A stretch of DNA of 64,000 bases from Lachnospiraceae bacterium UBA3273. Its GTDB lineage: Bacteria; Bacillota; Clostridia; Lachnospirales; Lachnospiraceae. The translations under genes and the position numbers were made by a program. Shown in pieces: positions 2,791 to 51,798 of the stretch (its first letter is position 1; each line of letters begins with the position of its first letter). The notes under the pieces were generated by a model that was not told where the DNA came from, ran no database searches, and saw only the letters and a program-made list of their open reading frames with translations. The stretch covers positions 14,033 through 78,032 of the forward strand of contig DEUB01000042.1 in assembly GCA_002362385.1 (NCBI GenBank). Direction: 5' to 3'.

Positions 2791-4017
2791 TCATAATACC
2801 ATACCGTTTTTCTTTAAGAGTTCCCTCGCTGTCTCAACGCTGTCCACACCTGTGGCGTTTTTGATAGGAGCGAACTCTTTTTCTCTGACTACTTCAAAAG
2901 GCAGGCAGCTTTCCAGTTCATGGATCATATCGAGCACCAGCTGCTCAAATTTATAGCCGTTTGGCTCCTGCGGCTTTATTTCATTCCCGTTTTCATCCAG
3001 ACAATTGATTTTCTTCTCCACGATATGGAGACAGAGCTTGCGGGACATAATGCGCTCCAATGCGGATACGGAAAACAGATAATTTAAGATAACTCCAAAA
3101 TTATAGGCATATTCGCCTTTTTCATTGCGTTCCTCCTTCATCTGTTCCGTCAGCTCATAATACTCCACAATAGAAGGTCTGCCATCCTCTAAGCACATAA
3201 CGCCCACTTTTTCGTCTGGCGCCGCCTTACGCACTACTTTCGCCCCTACTTCCACAGCGCTGTCAATGGAAGCCCCTATAAAAACGGGATCCGCGATTTT
3301 CTGCAAAACATTATCCACTGCAAAAATGTTCAGCCATTCAATGCCGATCTCATGGATCTTATCGACCAGCCCGTTTCTGGCAAGCGAGACAAACCAGCCC
3401 CCGTTTCCGTTGGGGGAGGTTGAAATCTTGCTCTTTGTCTCCAAAAACACTTTTCCTTCAAAATCCACTGCAGGCGCCATTTCCTGTTTAAAAAACCATA
3501 CCATGTCTTTCCGATATCCGAAAAAATCATGTTCCTTAAAAAACTCCGTCGTTCTCTCATGGTTTTTGTCACTGGTCATGATAAACAAAGGCACCCATGC
3601 GTCCGCCTTCTTTACCACATCCAAAAGGTTATTGATTAAGCATTCAAAAATGTATAAATCTTTTGTCAGGCCTATATTATAAACGCCCTTTGGCTCGTCG
3701 CTGCCAAGACGGGTTCCCATTCCGCCGGCTAAAAGCACGGCGCCAACCTTTTGCTTTTGTATGGCGGAAAGCCCCAGGTCTTCAAAACGGGACCTTTTCT
3801 TTTCAATCTCGTCTATTTCCATGGAAACAATGGGAGTGATTTTTCCTCTTTCCGTTCCGCTTTCCCTGTGGTTTAAATTTTTCACTACAGAAAAATCCGT
3901 CCCGTCTATCTGTTCAAGCAGTTCCTTTTGTCTCCCGTCGTCCAGTTCTCCATAATATTTTAACAAATGCGTCTGATCATAAACCGCTAATTTTTCTAAA
4001 GCCTGATTGTAATCCAA
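2791..4017 (-). CDS. UDP-N-acetylglucosamine/UDP-sugar pyrophosphorylase (UDPGP family)
   Basis: LLAGGMGTRLG, SPNGNGG, KFE motifs; TTG start at 4017 after AAAGGAG. Confidence 0.88.
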   Translation of the reverse strand: MDYNQALEKLAVYDQTHLLKYYGELDDGRQKELLEQIDGTDFSVVKNLNHRESGTERGKITPIVSMEIDEIEKKRSRFEDLGLSAIQKQKVGAVLLAGGMGTRLGSDEPKGVYNIGLTKDLYIFECLINNLLDVVKKADAWVPLFIMTSDKNHERTTEFFKEHDFFGYRKDMVWFFKQEMAPAVDFEGKVFLETKSKISTSPNGNGGWFVSLARNGLVDKIHEIGIEWLNIFAVDNVLQKIADPVFIGASIDSAVEVGAKVVRKAAPDEKVGVMCLEDGRPSIVEYYELTEQMKEERNEKGEYAYNFGVILNYLFSVSALERIMSRKLCLHIVEKKINCLDENGNEIKPQEPNGYKFEQLVLDMIHELESCLPFEVVREKEFAPIKNATGVDSVETARELLKKNGMVL

Positions 4018-46203: not shown

Positions 46204-47448
46204 TTATTTCCAGTCAATGGATCCGCTAAAGACTACCTTATTCCTGCCTTTTGCAATCTTTCCGACTTCATAGCATTCATAATATTTTTGTACTGTATCT
46301 ACAACCTTTTTCTCCTCTTCCCTTTCCACCACAATCATGAACCCCACGCCGCAGTTAAAAGTGGACAGCATTTCTTCCTGCCCGATATTTCCTTTATTTC
46401 GGATATAGGAAAAAACAGGAAGGGGCTTTATTTTTGTCAAATCAATTTCCGCGCTTAAGCCGTCAGGCATTATCCTGCTTAAATTTCCTTCTATCCCGCC
46501 GCCTGTAATATGGGCCATCCCGTGAACATACGGACAGCCGAATAAATTTTTGACAGCTTTGTAATAAGGGGTGTGCGGTTTCATAATTTGCTCTATAAAT
46601 GTTTCTCCCTGGATTTTATCAAGCTTTATCTGCGGCATTTTATCCATAAGCATCCGCACAAGGGAGTAACCGTTTGTGTGAAGCCCATTAGAAGCAACTG
46701 CTAACACCACATCTCCTTCCCTGACCCGCGAACCGTCAATAATATTTTCCCTCCCCACGATTCCTGCAACACTTGATGTGAGGATATAGACGCCTTTCTC
46801 AATCACTTGCGGCTGAATGGAAGTCTCGCCGCCTACCAGATCACATTCATTTTCCCTGCACGCTTCTGAAATTCCTTTTACAAAAGATTTTATTGTTTCT
46901 TTTTCCGCATTGCCGCACACAATAGTGTCCAATACTGCTAAAGGTCTCGCGCCCATAACAACAATATCATTGACCAGATGGTTTATCATATCATGGCAGA
47001 TGGACTCACTATAGCCGTATTCCATGGCTAACTTTTGTTTTGATCCCGGTTCTTCCGCCTTCAAAACAAGAACCGGGTTTTTGATTTCCGGAAAATGAAT
47101 ATCATACAGGGATGCGAATGGGCCAAATCCATTTAAGACACGCTCATTTTCCGTCTTTAAGTAAACCGCCATTTCCCTTTTCATGGCGTCGGTATAAGAA
47201 ATGTCCACACCTGCCTTACTATACGAAAAACTTTCATTTTTCTTTTCTTCTCCATTTAAAATTTCATCCACGCTGACCCGCAAAAGCTTTGCCAGTTCCA
47301 CAAGCATTTCCACATTGGGCAGGGTTCCGTTTTCCCACTTGGAGACAGCCTGAAAGGAAACCTTTAATTTTTCCGCCACATCCGCCTGGGTCAATCCCAA
47401 AGCCTTTCTTCTATGTGAAATGAACTTTGCAATCTTCTGATTATCCAA
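46204..47448 (-). CDS. XRE-HTH fused to divergent PurM (AIR synthetase-like) protein
   Basis: N-terminal TQ.DVAE.L.VS.QAVSKWE.G; then YSKAGVD, VND...GA.P, GGET, GLH.NGYSL, HITGGG, FN.G.G; TTG start. Confidence 0.85.
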   Translation of the reverse strand: MDNQKIAKFISHRRKALGLTQADVAEKLKVSFQAVSKWENGTLPNVEMLVELAKLLRVSVDEILNGEEKKNESFSYSKAGVDISYTDAMKREMAVYLKTENERVLNGFGPFASLYDIHFPEIKNPVLVLKAEEPGSKQKLAMEYGYSESICHDMINHLVNDIVVMGARPLAVLDTIVCGNAEKETIKSFVKGISEACRENECDLVGGETSIQPQVIEKGVYILTSSVAGIVGRENIIDGSRVREGDVVLAVASNGLHTNGYSLVRMLMDKMPQIKLDKIQGETFIEQIMKPHTPYYKAVKNLFGCPYVHGMAHITGGGIEGNLSRIMPDGLSAEIDLTKIKPLPVFSYIRNKGNIGQEEMLSTFNCGVGFMIVVEREEEKKVVDTVQKYYECYEVGKIAKGRNKVVFSGSIDWK

Positions 47449-47463
47449 TAAAAAGCACCAACC

Positions 47464-47504
47464 TTTCCTGTTCTTATTGTATAAAACAGGAAACATTGAT
47501 GCAA
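47464..47504 (-). promoter_or_regulatory. sigma-A promoter with inverted-repeat operator
   Basis: TTGCAT-17-TACAAT on minus strand; TTTCCTGTT/AACAGGAAA inverted repeat straddling the -10. Confidence 0.65.
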
Positions 47505-47581
47505 TAACCGGATATTTGAAGATATAAAAAAATTTCTACCAGGAGTTGAATGATATGTTTTATCCCAAACAACAGAAATAA

Positions 47582-47669
47582 CGGAAAGGAAAGGATTCGA
47601 ACCTTCGGTACACTTGCGCGTACGGCGCATTAGCAATGCGCTGCCTTAGACCATCTCGGCCACCTTTCC
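47582..47669 (-). tRNA. tRNA-Ser(GCT), CCA not encoded
   Basis: acceptor GGAAAGG/CCTTTCC, discriminator G, anticodon arm GCGCA-TTGCTAA-TGCGC, long variable arm with GCAA loop, TTCGAAT T-loop. Confidence 0.92.
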
Positions 47670-47673
47670 ATAA

Positions 47674-47757
47674 TGGATGGGGCAGGACTCGAACCTGCGT
47701 TGTTTCTTATGTCAGGGTTTTACAGACCCCTGCCCTCGCCACTAGGCATACCCATCC
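47674..47757 (-). tRNA. tRNA-Tyr(GTA), atypical, CCA not encoded
   Basis: acceptor GGATGGG/CCCATCC, discriminator A, anticodon arm GGGGT-CTGTAAA-ACCCT, T arm GCAGG-TTCGAGT-CCTGC; 3-nt acceptor-D linker and poorly paired 15-nt variable region. Confidence 0.85.
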
Positions 47758-47818
47758 TTATTGTTTTAGGGGGACTTCCCGGCATTTCCGGTTAAAGAAT
47801 GCCGGTGTCCCTTTAATC

Positions 47819-48073
47819 TTACGCGCCTATTTGTGTAGACGCCGCAATATTTATAACAAGAATATCATCTACCTGTACCTGAAAAATTACCGCCAATACT
47901 ACCAGATTATCTACGGAGGGCAAGGCCGTACCCTGCTGCCATTTGTAGATTGCCTGGGGTGTGGAGAAGCCAAAAATATTCTGGATATCTTTCACGGATA
48001 ATCCTTTTTCTTTCCTTAACTGTGTGATATTCTGTCCTGTTTTAACCATGTCAATGGTGGGAATTTGTATCAT
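47819..48073 (-). CDS. XRE family HTH transcriptional regulator
   Basis: AGGAGG RBS; LR..KGLSV..Q..FGF..PQAIYKWQ.G..LP. Confidence 0.9.
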   Translation of the reverse strand: MIQIPTIDMVKTGQNITQLRKEKGLSVKDIQNIFGFSTPQAIYKWQQGTALPSVDNLVVLAVIFQVQVDDILVINIAASTQIGA

Positions 48074-48149
48074 TTTTATGTCCTCCTGTTCTGGCAGACT
48101 GACGGTAAATAAGCTTCCCTTCTGGAGGTTTTAGCTTTTCTCTTCCCCC

Positions 48150-48280
48150 GACGTGCCTTAATCGCACAATTGCTTCGCAATCATGCGATTATAGGGCTTC
48201 GCCCTATAAGCTATATTTGCAAACCGTCTGATGGTAAGCAAGCTTCCCCTCAGACGCTTTACAAATATAGCTTGCACGTC
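48150..48280 (-). other. four-way-junction structured element (RNA or ssDNA) directly after the rtcB stop
   Basis: closing stem GACGTGC/GCACGTC plus three arms; two GC-GAA-GC loops on minus strand. Confidence 0.7.
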
Positions 48281-49480
48281 TCAGTTTGCCTTAAAGTTAT
48301 AAATCGGTTTCATGATGTCTATGACAGTTACGGATTCTTTGATGACGTCTATGATGTCTTCTAAAGATTTGTATGCCATAGGCGCTTCGTCTAATGTTGC
48401 TTCATTTACGGAAGTAGTATAGATTCCTTCCATTTCGCGTTTATAATCGTCCATATCCAAATTTTCCTTTGCTTTTTTTCTGGACATGATCCTTCCTGCC
48501 CCGTGGGGTGCGGAATAGTTCCATTCGGGATTGCCTTTACCCACGGCTAATACACTTCCGTCTCTCATATTAATAGGAATCAATACTTTCTCCCCTTCGT
48601 GGGCGGCAATGGCGCCTTTTCTTAAAATCATTTCTTCCGTATCAATATAATTATGAATGGTATGAAAGGAATCCGCGCCGCTCATACCCGTTCTATCCAA
48701 TAACACCTCCGCTATTTTTTCACGGTTTCTTCTGGCAAAGGTCTGGCAGATTTCCACATCAAAAAGATAATCTTCCAAATAGCTTCCATACAAAAAGCAT
48801 AAATCCTCCGGCATGGTTGCCTCCCTCTTATTCCAGGAGATCGCCTCTAAAGCTGCCTGTATTTCTTTTCTTCTGCCGGCCGCTTTATATTCACGGATAA
48901 TGGCGTCCCTTTCCTGAAAGTAAGTTTCCTTTCCTTTATTTAAATCAATTGCTAACTGCTGATAGATTTCCGCAACCTGCTTTCCAAGATTCCTGCTCCC
49001 GCTGTGTATCACAAGATAATTGGTTCCGTCCTCTGCCCGGTCAACCTCTATAAAGTGGTTTCCTCCGCCTAATGTACCCAGGCTTCTTTCTAACCTTTTC
49101 GTATCTCTAAGGCTTCTATAGCAGCGAAGAGCAGTCAGATCAAATCTTTCCTGTCTGCCTTCCCACACATTCATACCGGAAGGCACAAAATGTGCGGCTT
49201 CATCCAGCTTTTCAAAATCAATATCGCCTTTCCCCAAGGTTACCGTATACATCCCGCATCCGATATCCACTCCTACAATATTGGGAACGGCTTTATCCGT
49301 AACCGTCATGGTAGTTCCGATGGTGCAGCCTTTTCCCGCATGGACGTCGGGCATGATCCTTATCCTGCTTCCTTCTGTAAATTCATAATCGCACATCCGT
49401 CTGATCTGCTCTATAGCTTCATCTTCCACTACCTTCGCATAGCAGACAGCAGTATTCACTTTTCCTTTAATCTCCAACAT
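48281..49480 (-). CDS. rtcB: RtcB family RNA ligase (2',3'-cyclic/3'-phosphate to 5'-OH)
   Basis: MPDVH.G.G..IG, VGVDIGCG, LGGGNHF.E, HSGSR, HNY, SAPHGAGR. Confidence 0.95.
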   Translation of the reverse strand: MLEIKGKVNTAVCYAKVVEDEAIEQIRRMCDYEFTEGSRIRIMPDVHAGKGCTIGTTMTVTDKAVPNIVGVDIGCGMYTVTLGKGDIDFEKLDEAAHFVPSGMNVWEGRQERFDLTALRCYRSLRDTKRLERSLGTLGGGNHFIEVDRAEDGTNYLVIHSGSRNLGKQVAEIYQQLAIDLNKGKETYFQERDAIIREYKAAGRRKEIQAALEAISWNKREATMPEDLCFLYGSYLEDYLFDVEICQTFARRNREKIAEVLLDRTGMSGADSFHTIHNYIDTEEMILRKGAIAAHEGEKVLIPINMRDGSVLAVGKGNPEWNYSAPHGAGRIMSRKKAKENLDMDDYKREMEGIYTTSVNEATLDEAPMAYKSLEDIIDVIKESVTVIDIMKPIYNFKAN

Positions 49481-49590
49481 CTTCTTTTCCCCGTCTTTCT
49501 CTTTTCATTTCCTTAGTATTGCTTTTCTTTAACTCACTTTTTTAAGCTGCGTTTCCATTATAAGATATTCCGTCATTTACGTATTTTAGC

Positions 49591-49629
49591 ATAATAAAAC
49601 CGCCTATCTCTCATATAAGATAAGCGGTT
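49591..49629 (-). terminator. attenuator terminator upstream of rtcB
   Basis: AACCGCTTATCT/AGATAGGCGGTT 12-bp stem then TTATTAT on minus strand. Confidence 0.8.
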
Positions 49630-49663
49630 CCTAAAATCCATGAAGTCTATGAATCATCCGACA

Positions 49664-49783
49664 TCACACAATTCTGCATCTTTGCCTTATCTTACATGAG
49701 CGCATAAAAGTTAAGCTCTGATCTTTCCTCAGTGCCTGATAACTTCTTTCTTCCAGATAATCAAATCGAAAAATTGTGTTCAT
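49664..49783 (-). CDS. putative leader peptide, 39 aa (MNTIFRFDYLEERSYQALRKDQSLTFMRSCKIRQRCRIV)
   Basis: GAAAGGA RBS, ATG 49783, TGA 49664-49666; lies between a promoter and a terminator and contains a segment complementary to the terminator. Confidence 0.75.
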   Translation of the reverse strand: MNTIFRFDYLEERSYQALRKDQSLTFMRSCKIRQRCRIV

Positions 49784-49836
49784 CGTTATTATTTCCTTTC
49801 CGGGTCAGCCTTAGACCGCTTTTTTATCTAATCCCT

Positions 49837-49865
49837 AATATAACACAAGAAATTTGTTCTGTCAT
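49837..49865 (-). promoter_or_regulatory. sigma-A promoter for leader/rtcB
   Basis: ATGACA-17-TGnTATATT (extended -10) on minus strand. Confidence 0.7.
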
Positions 49866-49950
49866 TATACCTGCGCTATAATTTTTCATTTTTTTGCATC
49901 AAGGTTAGATATATGCCCCGCTTTTAATTCCGTTTCTGGACACTCAATCT

Positions 49951-51798
49951 TTAATCCTCCGCAATGACGATCATATAATCTTCCTTTTCATATACAGTCT
50001 GCTCTGATTTTAAAGGATTTGTTACGATCTCTGTAGCGCCGTCCCTTATCTTCTTATAACCTATGGCAATATGCCCCTTTCTGGCAGCGCTTTCCGTTAC
50101 AGTATAAAAATCAACGGGAACTCCTGTTTTTACATATTCGGAAGCAGGCTTCATATAGATCTCCGAGCCTTCCTCATCCAAAATATCCTCAAAAAGCGCC
50201 GTCAATTCCCTGTTTTCGGCAATCTGGGTCATTAAAAGATTTATAATATTGGAGCCGATGACAAAATCCTCTACCCTGGCCTGGGTTGCAAGGCGCTGGT
50301 TATTGCTCTTTCTCATTTCACTGGTAATGGTAAACTTTTTCCCCGTTTTACCGGAAATATCCCGAAGGAAGATCAATTGCAGCAGAGTCTGGGAATCGGA
50401 TGCCTCCGCATCCAGCCCATCATCGCTTAAAACCAGTATATCGTCCACATCCGACGATAATAATTCCTCCAAAAGCCTGCGGTCCGTTCCCGATCCCATA
50501 ACCTGCTCGATCACAATGTTTTTATAAGCTGCTTTATCCAACTCCAGCTCGTTGGGGTAGACAATGGTAACCTCAGAACCCGGCTCCACATAACAGTCAT
50601 ATTCCCGCAGGATGCGTTCAATCATACTGTTACACCCCAAAATCAGCAGACTTTCCCTGTTTGCGGTTTTCTTTGCCCCGGAATTATTGATCAGTTCCTC
50701 CTGTATGGGCATCTCATTCAAATCCAGCTCAAAGGAACCGTCATCATCCTCCAGCAGAATGATCAGGTCTCCTTTCTCAAGCACCGTATCCATGGGCGGA
50801 TTCAGATGGGGACCGTCGTCTTTTCGGATGCCGAATACAACCGCTTTAGGAAACAGGTTCAGGGTCTCATGGAGCATCTTTCCGTATAGCTCGGGAACCT
50901 CTTCAAAATACAGTTCATCCCCGTCATAGTCAAAAAGCTCCACCAGCACATTGGACAATCCCGGCTGTCTGCAGGTATGGGCAATAATACGGGAAATAGC
51001 GTCATTGGCATGAATAATCTCCGCCCTGCCTTCTCCTGCGATCCTCGCCGCCTCCACATTCTGCTCGTTTTCAATGGCCGCAGTCATAAACAGATCTTTT
51101 ACCAATAATTCCTTATCCTTTAAATATGCAGAAACGGATAAGATGATTTTAATGACCTCCGCGTCCTCATAAACATTGATTATAACAGAACGGCTTCTTT
51201 CCACAGCGCATCTTTCCAGAATATGCGCTTCCGATAAAGAACCGCTCCGGCAGATCACACGGGAAGTTTTAAAATCGGATATGCGGGATGCGATAGCTTC
51301 CTCCATCTCTTCCTTCTCCTGTGTACCCACCACTACAATGCACTGATTTTTGTGATTAGAGTTAGCTTCAATTAACTCATTTAACAACGTATAGATATTG
51401 TCATTAAACCCTATGATAACCGTATGCCTTTCTTCCAGTACAATGGACTTTCCCTTGCGCAGTTCCTTCAGCCTGCTTTCAAAACCGGTGGTAATGATAC
51501 CGATTAAAATACTGGTTACAAACAGCCCGCATAGAGTTACCACAGACATTATGATCACATAAGGTATGCTGTCCAAAGTATCCGCCGTCAAGGTTCCTGC
51601 ATCCAGAACATGCATGGCGCTTGACCAGATCTGGCTTCCCAGACTGCCGTCCGCACCAAAAACAACTGCCGCAATTCCCGCAAGCCCTACCACGATCATA
51701 GTAATTCCAAATAGCAGGCCAATCAGTGCGATGGTTCCTTTGGACATAATATTGTCAAAATGATATTGTATTTTTTCTCCAAAGGTCCGCTTCTTCAT
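49951..51798 (-). CDS. CASTOR/POLLUX-related RCK-domain ion channel protein
   Basis: two N-terminal TM flanking pore-like DAGT segment, HTVIIG.N RCK domain, GLS.V..EL..Y.G.E, EGSEIY.KP. Confidence 0.82.
   Translation of the reverse strand: MKKRTFGEKIQYHFDNIMSKGTIALIGLLFGITMIVVGLAGIAAVVFGADGSLGSQIWSSAMHVLDAGTLTADTLDSIPYVIIMSVVTLCGLFVTSILIGIITTGFESRLKELRKGKSIVLEERHTVIIGFNDNIYTLLNELIEANSNHKNQCIVVVGTQEKEEMEEAIASRISDFKTSRVICRSGSLSEAHILERCAVERSRSVIINVYEDAEVIKIILSVSAYLKDKELLVKDLFMTAAIENEQNVEAARIAGEGRAEIIHANDAISRIIAHTCRQPGLSNVLVELFDYDGDELYFEEVPELYGKMLHETLNLFPKAVVFGIRKDDGPHLNPPMDTVLEKGDLIILLEDDDGSFELDLNEMPIQEELINNSGAKKTANRESLLILGCNSMIERILREYDCYVEPGSEVTIVYPNELELDKAAYKNIVIEQVMGSGTDRRLLEELLSSDVDDILVLSDDGLDAEASDSQTLLQLIFLRDISGKTGKKFTITSEMRKSNNQRLATQARVEDFVIGSNIINLLMTQIAENRELTALFEDILDEEGSEIYMKPASEYVKTGVPVDFYTVTESAARKGHIAIGYKKIRDGATEIVTNPLKSEQTVYEKEDYMIVIAED

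Follow-up and report, generated by a model that had tools for sequence, protein, structure and literature searches.

Gut Lachnospiraceae carry a conserved and apparently undescribed operon (a search of the literature found no description of it) that probably supplies back-up parts for translation under certain conditions, and the locus described here is one version of it. With its extra tRNA genes, small regulator gene and, at some loci, the RNA ligase gene rtcB, the operon appears to be a reserve on which cells could draw when tRNAs are damaged or scarce. The locus lies in a 64 000-nucleotide stretch of Lachnospiraceae bacterium UBA3273 (the window), where a promoter, a leader ORF, a terminator, rtcB, a structured element, a gene for an XRE-family regulator, tRNA-Tyr(GUA) and tRNA-Ser(GCU) follow one another on the minus strand. 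Every part listed in an earlier note on this DNA, made from the sequence alone, was located in the orientation given there using ARAGORN, Rfam, Pfam, folding and a promoter scan. In the direction of transcription the features are:

49865–49881, minus strand: candidate XRE operator, an inverted repeat TTATAG-N5-GTATAA (also written TTATAC-N5-GTATAA) that abuts the -35 element
49837–49865, minus strand: promoter, with -35 ATGACA, a 17-nt spacer and an extended -10 TGn-TATATT
49815–49829, minus strand: 5'-UTR segment R0 (AGAUAAAAAAGCGGU), mimic of the terminator 3' arm and candidate antiterminator strand
49792–49817, minus strand: small, covarying 5'-UTR hairpin with the ribosome-binding site GGAAAGGAAA
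49664–49783, minus strand: leader ORF (MNTIFRFDYLEERSYQALRKDQSLTFMRSCKIRQRCRIV) of 39 codons behind this ribosome-binding site
49684–49695, minus strand: segment R2 (UGUAAGAUAAGG, encoding C-K-I-R), like R0 a candidate partner of the terminator 5' arm
49591–49631, minus strand: intrinsic terminator, stem AACCGCUUAUCU / AGAUAGGCGGUU, then UUUUAUUAU
48281–49480, minus strand: rtcB, encoding a 3'-phosphate/5'-OH RNA ligase of 399 aa (Pfam RtcB, E = 5e-56)
48142–48282, minus strand: copy of a four-way-junction repeat, beginning within the rtcB stop codon
47819–48073, minus strand: gene for an XRE-family helix-turn-helix protein of 84 aa (Pfam HTH_3, E = 9e-7)
47771–47811, minus strand: hairpin without a U-tract (-21.8 kcal/mol), 13 nt before tRNA-Tyr
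47674–47757, minus strand: tRNA-Tyr(GUA), operon-type paralogue (ARAGORN, Rfam tRNA)
47581–47670, minus strand: tRNA-Ser(GCU), spare copy (ARAGORN, Rfam tRNA)

The order of the parts is identical in four further species of the genus and the core of leader, XRE gene and tRNA genes is seen again across many genera; the arrangement therefore exceeds chance expectation. At least 573 loci encode an XRE protein of this type. Its orthologues are 60–97% identical with 35 invariant columns, and they occur in 23 of 200 sampled Lachnospiraceae genera (about 12%) and almost nowhere outside the family. The operon is present in a single copy per genome. Across loci the usual order is leader, terminator, tRNA-Lys, XRE and then tRNA-Glu, Glu, His, Tyr and Ser, the cargo of the relatives being tRNA-Lys(UUU), Glu, His, Tyr and Ser(GCU) and, in some cases, also RtcB. 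Genes for tRNA follow the XRE gene in 58 of 75 loci, and they stand consistently under the leader–terminator unit, which upholds the expectation that they are a conserved part of the operon.

The operon tRNAs are divergent spare copies rather than housekeeping genes, as the earlier note had held. Two lineages of tRNA-Tyr can be distinguished, with 62–72% identity between them and 79–95% within each; the window copy is 79–90% identical to operon tRNA-Tyr elsewhere and 62–69% identical to housekeeping tRNA-Tyr. The housekeeping paralogues are located elsewhere, also in this genome, where contig C25 carries a housekeeping-type tRNA-Tyr and contig C55 a second tRNA-Ser(GCU) that is 66% identical to the operon copy and has its own TTGACA/TATAAT promoter. 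Housekeeping tRNAs for Tyr, Lys, His and Glu are found in their usual clusters in Eubacterium plexicaudatum ASF492 and in one congener. Deletions and truncations are frequent among the operon copies: tRNA-Ser(GCU) is internally deleted in one congener, and the rtcB locus of one congener ends in a truncated tRNA-Tyr. Such decay means that the operon tRNAs are dispensable.

The rtcB product matches Pfam PF01139 with 191 bits (cut-off 27), and its metal-binding and guanylyl-histidine motifs (DxHxGxG/C, GNHF, HSGSR and HGAGR; in the window protein PDVHAGKGCTIG, GGGNHFIEV, HSGSRNLG and APHGAGR) align to the Pyrococcus horikoshii RtcB structure. Orthologues with 72–95% identity occupy the same operon position in other genera, so that its membership of the operon, proposed earlier, stands; its place in the core does not, as rtcB is present in only 13 of 64 loci, about a fifth, and in seven of 17 genomes of the genus. 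It is optional cargo on a core made up of promoter, leader ORF, terminator, XRE gene and tRNAs. The assembly, 94% complete, yielded no RtcR (PF06956), RtcA (PF01137, RTC) or archease, and the genome gave no match to Ro (TROVE); their involvement was set aside on this basis, and the absence of RtcR agrees with what had been claimed.

The element behind rtcB is strongly structured (fold z-score -9.7; covariance-model match 158 bits). In the repeat, 93.8% of cells are paired, compensatory changes are seen in 50 of 53 pairs, and G-U pairs outnumber A-C pairs by 44 to 10. It has no Rfam match. Model R1 recognizes copies in 35 of the 151 Lachnospiraceae genomes searched, with as many as 14 in a single genome, and other copies stand after the stop codons of genes for an ABC transporter, a glycosyltransferase, SpoIVB, SmpB and further unrelated proteins, whereas the equivalent spacer of two congeners lacks the element. 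Since it is dispersed in this way, it is not a component specific to the circuit but presumably a passenger repeat, and its earlier placing within the proposed circuit is not sustained. The same observations dispose of any role for it as a tRNA mimic or a sensor specific to rtcB and, with the lack of TROVE and Rfam matches, of a Y RNA/Ro module beside rtcB. A second copy of its loop motif upstream of the XRE gene (48104–48119) was considered as an XRE operator and rejected because it is not conserved in relatives.

Transcription would start at a sigma-70-type promoter. The promoter claimed previously is well borne out, as the site matches at ten of 12 positions with the extended TG and is conserved across genera. 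The adjoining inverted repeat has the consensus TTATAyyAc.aGTATAATGACA and is kept in 66 unique promoter regions from many genera. The XRE protein is presumably the regulator of the operon and we infer that it binds this repeat; given a site centred near -43 it could also act as an activator. The strict form of the operator occurs once in this genome, and a wider XRE regulon was therefore rejected. Downstream of the promoter, the 5'-UTR hairpin keeps its pairing despite sequence change between loci (GGUC/GACC, GGCU/AGCC, GGAU/AUCC and GGAC/GUCC).

In 72 loci and the window, the leader is an ORF of 38–57 codons, each with a purine-rich ribosome-binding site. Length variants of the common type are in frame and share the C-terminus, and changes are in excess at the third codon position; these three features indicate that the leader is translated. 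The peptide matches no Pfam or NCBIfam family and is conserved in sequence, including its basic C-terminus. The stop codon lies about 35 nt upstream of the terminator, whose hairpin (approximately 49598–49631) has 15 pairs, -20.5 kcal/mol and z = -6.0. The window thus presents a short ORF with a ribosome-binding site, an intrinsic terminator directly after it and structural genes behind, as in an attenuator. Across loci the leader and terminator form a conserved unit with structural genes directly 3'. The terminator motif CCGCTTA[TC]C is found upstream of the XRE gene in 56 of 64 loci; its two arms co-vary, and the stem sequence is conserved across genera far more than a plain terminator requires.

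The first tRNA begins directly after the terminator T-run in 29 loci (34–37 nt from the start of the terminator motif), which leaves no room there for a tRNA promoter, so that all expression of the cargo would rely on read-through. In one congener, about 25 nt separate the terminator U-tract from the rtcB start codon. The proposal of a gating unit of leader and terminator is thereby strengthened. The further claim that the operon contains no internal promoter or terminator holds to the extent that a consensus scan of the minus strand found no site resembling either between rtcB and the tRNAs; however, the scan is a weak one that also missed the leader terminator, and a weak promoter within rtcB or the XRE gene would be compatible with it. 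A TATAAT at about 49543–49548, between terminator and rtcB, was rejected as an internal promoter: it lacks a usable -35, relatives do not conserve it, and the stretch is deleted in one congener. The spacers between the XRE gene and the tRNAs contain a conserved hairpin, ending mostly 3–6 nt before the first downstream tRNA in nearly all loci, with differing sequences, no T-run and no conserved promoter. This hairpin presumably forms a protective 3' end of the XRE mRNA once RNase P has cut.

Two upstream segments could compete for the terminator. When transcripts cut before the 3' arm are folded, either the 5'-UTR AAGCGG of R0 or the K-I-R codon segment AAGAUAAG pairs with the terminator 5' arm; R0 does so in seven of ten representatives and its AAGCGG is kept in nearly all loci. 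R2 and CUUAUCUUAUA are complementary, and the G/A variants of R2 remain pairable. In minimum-energy folds R2 pairs with the Tyr-Leu codon region (49753–49762), and one leader subgroup lacks the K-I-R segment altogether. As R0, R2 and the target arm are almost invariant, covariation cannot back the antiterminator pairing. No T-box, riboswitch, Y RNA or ribozyme was detected in the leader or structured element by cmscan at E values up to 10 (47300–50100), this permissive Rfam search returning the two tRNAs and chance-level matches only.

These features suggest the following working scheme. Transcripts from the sigma-70-type promoter would carry the translated leader ORF into the terminator, and only those that read through would reach the cargo. 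During smooth leader translation the terminator 5' arm would stay free and the terminator would form; were translation slowed or to fail, the mimics of the 3' arm, namely the 5'-UTR AAGCGG and the K-I-R codon segment, would pair with the 5' arm and allow read-through. Scarce or cleaved tRNAs, ribosome-targeting compounds and damaged ribosomes may all act as triggers. RNase P and RNase Z would then free the tRNAs, leaving the XRE mRNA with its 3' hairpin, RtcB would rejoin RNAs with 2',3'-cyclic-phosphate and 5'-OH ends, and XRE, acting at the -35 inverted repeat, would turn the operon off again. The repeat behind rtcB would take no part. We infer read-through, induction and co-transcription of the operon. 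One point that sits uneasily with the scheme is the position of the leader stop codon relative to the terminator, since the way in which a ribosome terminating there would block the alternative pairing is not obvious.

A more specific reading is possible, and we hold it only tentatively: the leader would sense tRNA supply, with loss of particular tRNAs stalling the leader ribosome and releasing replacement tRNAs together with RtcB where present, the loop being closed by XRE. The regulatory codons would be those for Tyr, His, Ser (AGY), Glu and Lys, the isoacceptor families encoded by the operon; their loss might be caused by anticodon nucleases that serve in phage defence or act as bacteriocins or toxins, and the replacement tRNAs would be nuclease-divergent. 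In the commonest leader, 18–19 of 46 codons are of these kinds against a background of 22.3% (p about 0.003–0.008), with no tandem run of any single regulatory codon. In the window leader there are eight among 38 against about 22%, no significant enrichment. Its AGY serine codons (14 and 23) correspond to other residues in close relatives, and its one invariant serine (codon 29) is TCA. The earlier proposal that loss of specific tRNAs stalls the leader ribosome is accordingly not supported by the window leader, in which Tyr and Ser (AGY) codons are not enriched and the AGY positions are not kept. Co-variation between leader codons and linked tRNAs, which the note had named as a check, was seen across loci solely as an association of His codons with tRNA-His (Fisher p = 0.009); this clade-level link stems from one or two clades and does not count as independent evidence, and co-variation was otherwise rejected.

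Other explanations need to be weighed against conditional back-up gated by the leader. Control might lie only at the promoter, with XRE a labile autorepressor like TrcR of Anabaena, the leader an independent small-protein gene, the terminator leaky and translation irrelevant. The conserved operator-like repeat at -35, the XRE gene within the operon, the manner in which TrcR acts, the conservation of the peptide down to its basic C-terminus and the unenriched window leader all fit this account. We nevertheless consider it unlikely, because it leaves unexplained the over-conserved terminator stem with two conserved upstream mimics of its 3' arm, the 29 loci in which cargo needs read-through and the abundance, in the commonest leader, of codons read by cargo tRNAs. 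The locus might also be an ordinary constitutive tRNA operon that includes a regulator gene and, at some loci, rtcB; the genes would then be neighbours through mere synteny, with no role in repair or replacement. Mixed operons of tRNA and protein genes are known, such as the tufB operon of Escherichia coli, and the operon tRNAs look canonical to Rfam (55.8 and 53.8 bits for the two in the window). Clustering of tRNA genes is moreover common in Firmicutes (PMC8421152). Yet housekeeping copies of these isoacceptors sit in their usual clusters, the operon copies decay frequently, few of the sampled genera have the operon and a strong terminator precedes the first tRNA, all of which make this account improbable.

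That the module derives from a mobile element or prophage, as a remnant or as cargo, seems very unlikely; XRE would then be a repressor of the CI/Cro-like kind, and the tRNAs would join RtcB as phage-type counter-defence cargo. Such an origin would suit the patchy distribution of rtcB within the genus and of XRE among genera, the phage RstR-type repressor that ranks first, below cut-off, for XRE in NCBIfam and the truncated tRNA-Tyr that closes one rtcB locus. One Lachnospiraceae locus also heads a 26-tRNA array resembling the L-arrays of tRNA genes that spread horizontally (PMC8421152). However, no integrase, phage, transposase or other mobility genes occur within 8 kb of the window operon, so that a prophage or island setting was discarded; the flanking genes are common to species of the genus, and each genome has one copy. 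Conditional back-up of translation remains the preferred reading.

How RtcB is controlled outside enterobacteria and cyanobacteria, and what extra tRNA genes are for, is little understood, and the operon offers a compact, testable case in which tRNA genes stand straight behind a leader ORF and terminator and are tied to a small repressor in abundant gut commensals. Should the gate respond to translation capacity or to how plentiful specific tRNAs are, attenuation control would extend to tRNA genes themselves and a host-encoded defence against tRNA-cutting toxins would be indicated, with relevance to phage defence, bacteriocin warfare and antibiotic tolerance in the gut. Should the sensor reading be true, the operon would provide the first case of an attenuator sensing the tRNA that it has as cargo, and one widespread in gut Lachnospiraceae. 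Experiments are feasible because several cultured strains have the operon, among them Acetatifactor muris DSM 23669, Otoolea muris DSM 111138, E. plexicaudatum ASF492, Lachnospiraceae bacterium A4 and Lachnospiraceae bacterium COE1.

The idea is not without precedent. The closest known system is the translational-stress regulon of Anabaena sp. PCC 7120, in which a trn operon of 26 spare tRNAs and rtcB are co-induced by translational stress through the small autoregulated repressor TrcR (PMC8421152, PMC10272220). Both systems place non-housekeeping tRNAs and rtcB under common control and encode a small regulator, the proposed role in both being upkeep of translation when tRNAs or ribosomes are impaired, and one Lachnospiraceae locus matches the trn operon in its number of tRNAs. 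They differ in that TrcR, which is confined to cyanobacteria, belongs to the ribbon-helix-helix proteins and acts on direct repeats over the -10, whereas XRE is a helix-turn-helix protein encoded inside the operon with a candidate inverted-repeat site at -35; in that a leader ORF and terminator gate the Lachnospiraceae cargo; and in that rtcB is predicted to share a transcript with the tRNAs, while in Anabaena it is a separate locus. Ribosome-mediated attenuators (the trp, his and pheA leaders, and the antibiotic-responsive bmrB-bmrCD and vmlR of Bacillus) likewise have a short translated ORF followed by an intrinsic terminator, upstream segments that can pair with the terminator 5' arm, to which the candidates R0 and R2 would correspond, and, as in the commonest Lachnospiraceae leader, codons matched to the cargo. 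Their cargo, however, is genes for amino-acid biosynthesis or resistance rather than tRNA genes and an RNA ligase, and the Lachnospiraceae leader departs from them in having no tandem single-codon run and a predicted long-range pairing from the 5'-UTR. In enterobacteria RtcB similarly belongs to an inducible RNA-repair response tied to tRNA damage and impaired translation (rtcBA under the sigma-54 activator RtcR, and rsr-yrlBA-rtcBA of Salmonella), but those operons are without tRNA genes, and the Lachnospiraceae assembly has no detected RtcR, RtcA or Ro; in comparison with the Salmonella operon, positions 47300–50100 of the window show no Y-RNA or other Rfam match except the tRNAs. Phage tRNA sets such as the T5 tRNAs replace host tRNAs cut by anticodon nucleases, of which Lys(UUU), Tyr, Glu, His and Ser isoacceptors are typical targets. 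The operon resembles these sets in its divergent extra tRNAs for the same five, but its copies sit on the chromosome, where control is of the host type, and come together with a repressor and a ligase.

Every operon part that the earlier note had named in the window is confirmed, and all lie in the same orientation on the minus strand. They are listed here together with one further hairpin (47771-47811).

49865-49837, minus strand: promoter-like site with an extended -10, upstream of rtcB
49664-49783, minus strand: leader ORF of 39 codons with a good ribosome-binding site
Upstream of rtcB: 15-pair hairpin followed by UUUUAUUAU (-20.5 kcal/mol, z = -6.0)
48281-49480, minus strand: RtcB ligase, 399-amino-acid ORF with complete catalytic motifs
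48142-48282, minus strand: structured element, with a second copy on contig C27 of the same genome (45017-45144) and further loci L155-L173
47819-48073, minus strand: XRE-type helix-turn-helix protein, 84-amino-acid ORF
47771-47811, minus strand: hairpin between XRE and tRNA-Tyr
47674-47757, minus strand: tRNA-Tyr(GUA) (ARAGORN and Rfam)
47581-47670, minus strand: tRNA-Ser(GCU) (ARAGORN and Rfam)

In line with the earlier note, no RtcR activator was detected in this 94%-complete assembly, nor were RtcA, archease or Ro protein; the assembly comprises 75 contigs, on which no more than 24 tRNAs are present. The tRNA pair is immediately followed by a gene (46204-47496, minus strand) that joins an XRE helix-turn-helix domain to a complete PurM-like (AIR synthase) body; three or four congeneric species keep it at this place.

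A profile search with the leader peptide recovered the same leader in other genera, adjoining XRE, tRNAs and sometimes rtcB. A search with an alignment of XRE orthologues yielded at least 573 XRE loci, the best 80 of which all belong to Lachnospiraceae or unclassified Clostridia, several cultured strains among them. Acetatifactor muris DSM 23669, Otoolea muris DSM 111138 and Eubacterium plexicaudatum ASF492 are examples of cultured strains with the operon. Counts of loci and genomes come from related genomes and are not independent: the terminator motif CCGCTTA[TC]C lies upstream of XRE in 56 of the 64 loci with enough upstream DNA, rtcB stands between leader and XRE in 13 of the same 64, and tRNA genes follow XRE within 500 nt in 58 of the 75 loci for which downstream DNA is available. 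The most frequent arrangement runs promoter, leader ORF, terminator, tRNA-Lys(UUU), XRE, tRNA-Glu(UUC), Glu(CUC), His, Tyr and Ser(GCU). Of 200 Lachnospiraceae genera sampled, 23 have an XRE orthologue, which is nearly unseen beyond the family (2/388 sampled Clostridia genomes from other families). Judged by these locus counts across the family, the conserved core is the leader, XRE and tRNAs, with rtcB as a frequent, optional cargo.

Within the genus, rtcB is present in seven of the 17 other genomes searched; five of the seven have the order leader-rtcB-XRE, followed in three by tRNA-Tyr and tRNA-Ser. The leader region is conserved also in those genomes that have a different gene upstream of it. 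In one congener species tRNA-Tyr is kept and tRNA-Ser is internally deleted; in another just the first ~30 bases of tRNA-Tyr lie beside rtcB and XRE, and a full operon version is found elsewhere in the genome. Operon tRNAs are often truncated, interrupted or lost across loci, which fits a putative accessory role. Between XRE and tRNA-Tyr in one genome (L027, G013), and also at locus L100, lies a degenerate tRNA-Glu(UUC)-like sequence, uncalled by ARAGORN, that looks like a relic of a fuller tRNA set. At another locus (L030, G016, 2813-4000), tRNA-Trp(CCA) comes next after the leader and terminator, with rtcB behind it, and the leader contains two Trp codons.

Across genera, the leader has a conserved anatomy. 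Immediately next to the -35 stands an inverted repeat, TTATAC-N5-GTATAA, and the 5′ UTR presents in order AAGCGG, a small hairpin that covaries, and the ribosome-binding site. The leader ORF comprises 38-57 codons with the core Y-L-x-S-E-x-Y-(E/Q)-A-L ... F-M-R-S-x-K-I-(R/K), and the terminator stem shows hardly any sequence change. Leaders of the common type differ in length without losing the frame or their shared C-terminus; variable sites fall at third, first and second codon positions in the proportion 17, 10 and 8, and 37 of 80 codon differences from the consensus are synonymous. The leader ORF is thus probably translated. In many loci with the dominant leader type (e.g. L105, 3630-3790) a second ORF (MSPERK...CAHVR) overlaps it in another frame, starting inside the 5′-UTR hairpin; because it has no ribosome-binding site, it is probably not translated.

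Two upstream segments, AAGCGG and AAGAUAAG, mimic the 3′ arm of the terminator stem. When transcripts truncated ahead of the 3′ arm are folded in silico, one of these mimics is paired with the 5′ arm. Both mimics are invariant, so that they carry no covariation signal. We favour, with some reservation, a conditional operon gated by leader translation. Smooth translation of the leader would allow the terminator to form; impaired translation would let the upstream mimics capture the 5′ arm, so that the cargo is made, and XRE would reset the promoter. Read-through of the terminator is unavoidable for rtcB in one congener species, since the rtcB start codon follows the U-tract after ~25 nt. In each of 29 loci the first tRNA begins immediately behind the T-run, 34-37 nt downstream of the point where the terminator motif starts, leaving no room for a promoter, and a comparison of the spacers between XRE and the next tRNA across loci found no conserved promoter. 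The operon tRNAs are predicted to depend on terminator read-through.

Set beside this leader and terminator, control at the promoter only, by a labile XRE as with TrcR, the small repressor of the Anabaena translational-stress regulon, seems improbable to us; the conserved inverted repeat abutting the -35 is common ground for this explanation and for the resetting step of the one we favour. A plain constitutive tRNA operon, in which the tRNAs would simply be transcribed throughout, is slightly more improbable still. That the operon is the remnant of a mobile element is very unlikely, there being no mobility genes near it.

A sharper version, put forward in the earlier note, holds that the leader senses the loss of specific tRNAs; we consider it a possibility, though a rather doubtful one. 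The commonest leader, whose sequence contains YYLHSEHYEALFSKEKEQS, devotes 18-19 of its 46 codons to Lys, Glu, His, Tyr and Ser(AGY), the families read by the tRNAs of the commonest operon, versus a background of 22.3% in neighbouring genes (p ~0.003-0.008). Ser codons of leaders are AGY in 64% of cases versus 37% in the background, in sequences that are related. The window's own leader shows no such enrichment (8 of its 38 codons), and its two AGY Ser positions are occupied by other residues in close relatives. Co-variation between leader codons and tRNAs across loci was recovered for His only (two or more His codons with tRNA-His, 20/44 versus 2/19), and this signal reflects one or two clades.

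The operon tRNAs are, by sequence comparison, spare copies. In Eubacterium plexicaudatum ASF492 and one congener, the housekeeping tRNA-Tyr, Lys(UUU), His and Glu(UUC) reside in the usual large clusters and are clearly unlike the operon copies. Across genomes, operon-type tRNA-Tyr genes are 79-95% identical among themselves and 62-72% identical to housekeeping tRNA-Tyr. The window's genome has another tRNA-Ser(GCU) on contig C55, served by a strong promoter of its own, and a housekeeping-type tRNA-Tyr, also with its own promoter, on contig C25 (~2227-2626; locus L174, 728-1127, minus strand). The latter has 340 N between its first 24 and last 21 bases, ~300 nt beyond the need of an intact tRNA, which would be withheld sequence, a gap or an inserted stretch, an intron for example. 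The XRE-tRNA spacers contain a hairpin of varying sequence, without a T-run and ending mostly 3-6 bases short of the tRNA, which we infer may be a protective 3′ end of the XRE mRNA left after RNase P cutting. In several genomes the operon tRNA-Lys(UUU) carries a ~20-nt hairpin insertion (AAGGGAUAAAGGGCAUCCCU) before the anticodon stem, and such genes are miscalled Pro(AGG) or Ser(AGA) by ARAGORN; in other genomes its 3′ part is missing. The tRNA-Lys(UUU) genes listed are those of L083, L088, L108 and L075 (first tRNA after the terminator) and of L068, L104 and L082.

The structured element, which the earlier note had counted among the operon parts, has a different character. The spacer between rtcB and XRE forms a four-way junction, and its fold is much more stable than those of shuffled sequences (z = -9.7). 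The family is ~130-140 nt long, with a conserved 5′ GAGCNGUGC closing stem, apical loop GGGAGCUUGCUCAC and arm AUAGGGCGAAGCCCG, and nothing in Rfam matches it. With a covariance model based on four copies, full-length matches turned up in 35 of the 151 Lachnospiraceae genomes sampled, at up to 14 copies per genome. The family covaries very strongly. On 31 matches, pairing is maintained in 93.8% of cells versus 58% for shuffles and 34-48% for slid partners, with compensatory changes in 50 of 53 pairs; G-U pairs exceed A-C pairs 44 to 10, and the element is therefore read on the minus (operon) strand. Since many copies begin 0-9 nt past the stop codon of a co-oriented, unrelated gene, and the spacer lacks the element in two congeners, it is a dispersed repeat that landed in the operon and no specific part of the circuit. 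It is interesting in its own right. In this genome only, a second copy of the apical-loop motif (GGGAAGCUUAUUUACC, 48104-48119, minus strand) has CCUCC (48124-48128) on one side and the XRE ribosome-binding site GGAGG (48082-48086) on the other, an arrangement (48082-48128, minus strand) that could sequester this site.

A literature search found no description of this Lachnospiraceae operon. The closest known system is the TrcR regulon of Anabaena, where rtcB and a silent operon with 26 spare tRNAs are jointly derepressed under translational stress via the ribbon-helix-helix repressor TrcR (PMC8421152, PMC10272220). The Lachnospiraceae operon would work similarly in outline. In a Lachnospiraceae MAG from sheep rumen (L139, 1463-5400), an array of 26 tRNA genes covering most amino acids stands behind the same leader, terminator and XRE; it resembles the long tRNA arrays described in cyanobacteria. 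The regulators, however, belong to different families, XRE as against ribbon-helix-helix, and, unlike in Anabaena, the Lachnospiraceae ligase and tRNAs share one predicted transcript, with the cargo placed behind a leader ORF and terminator.
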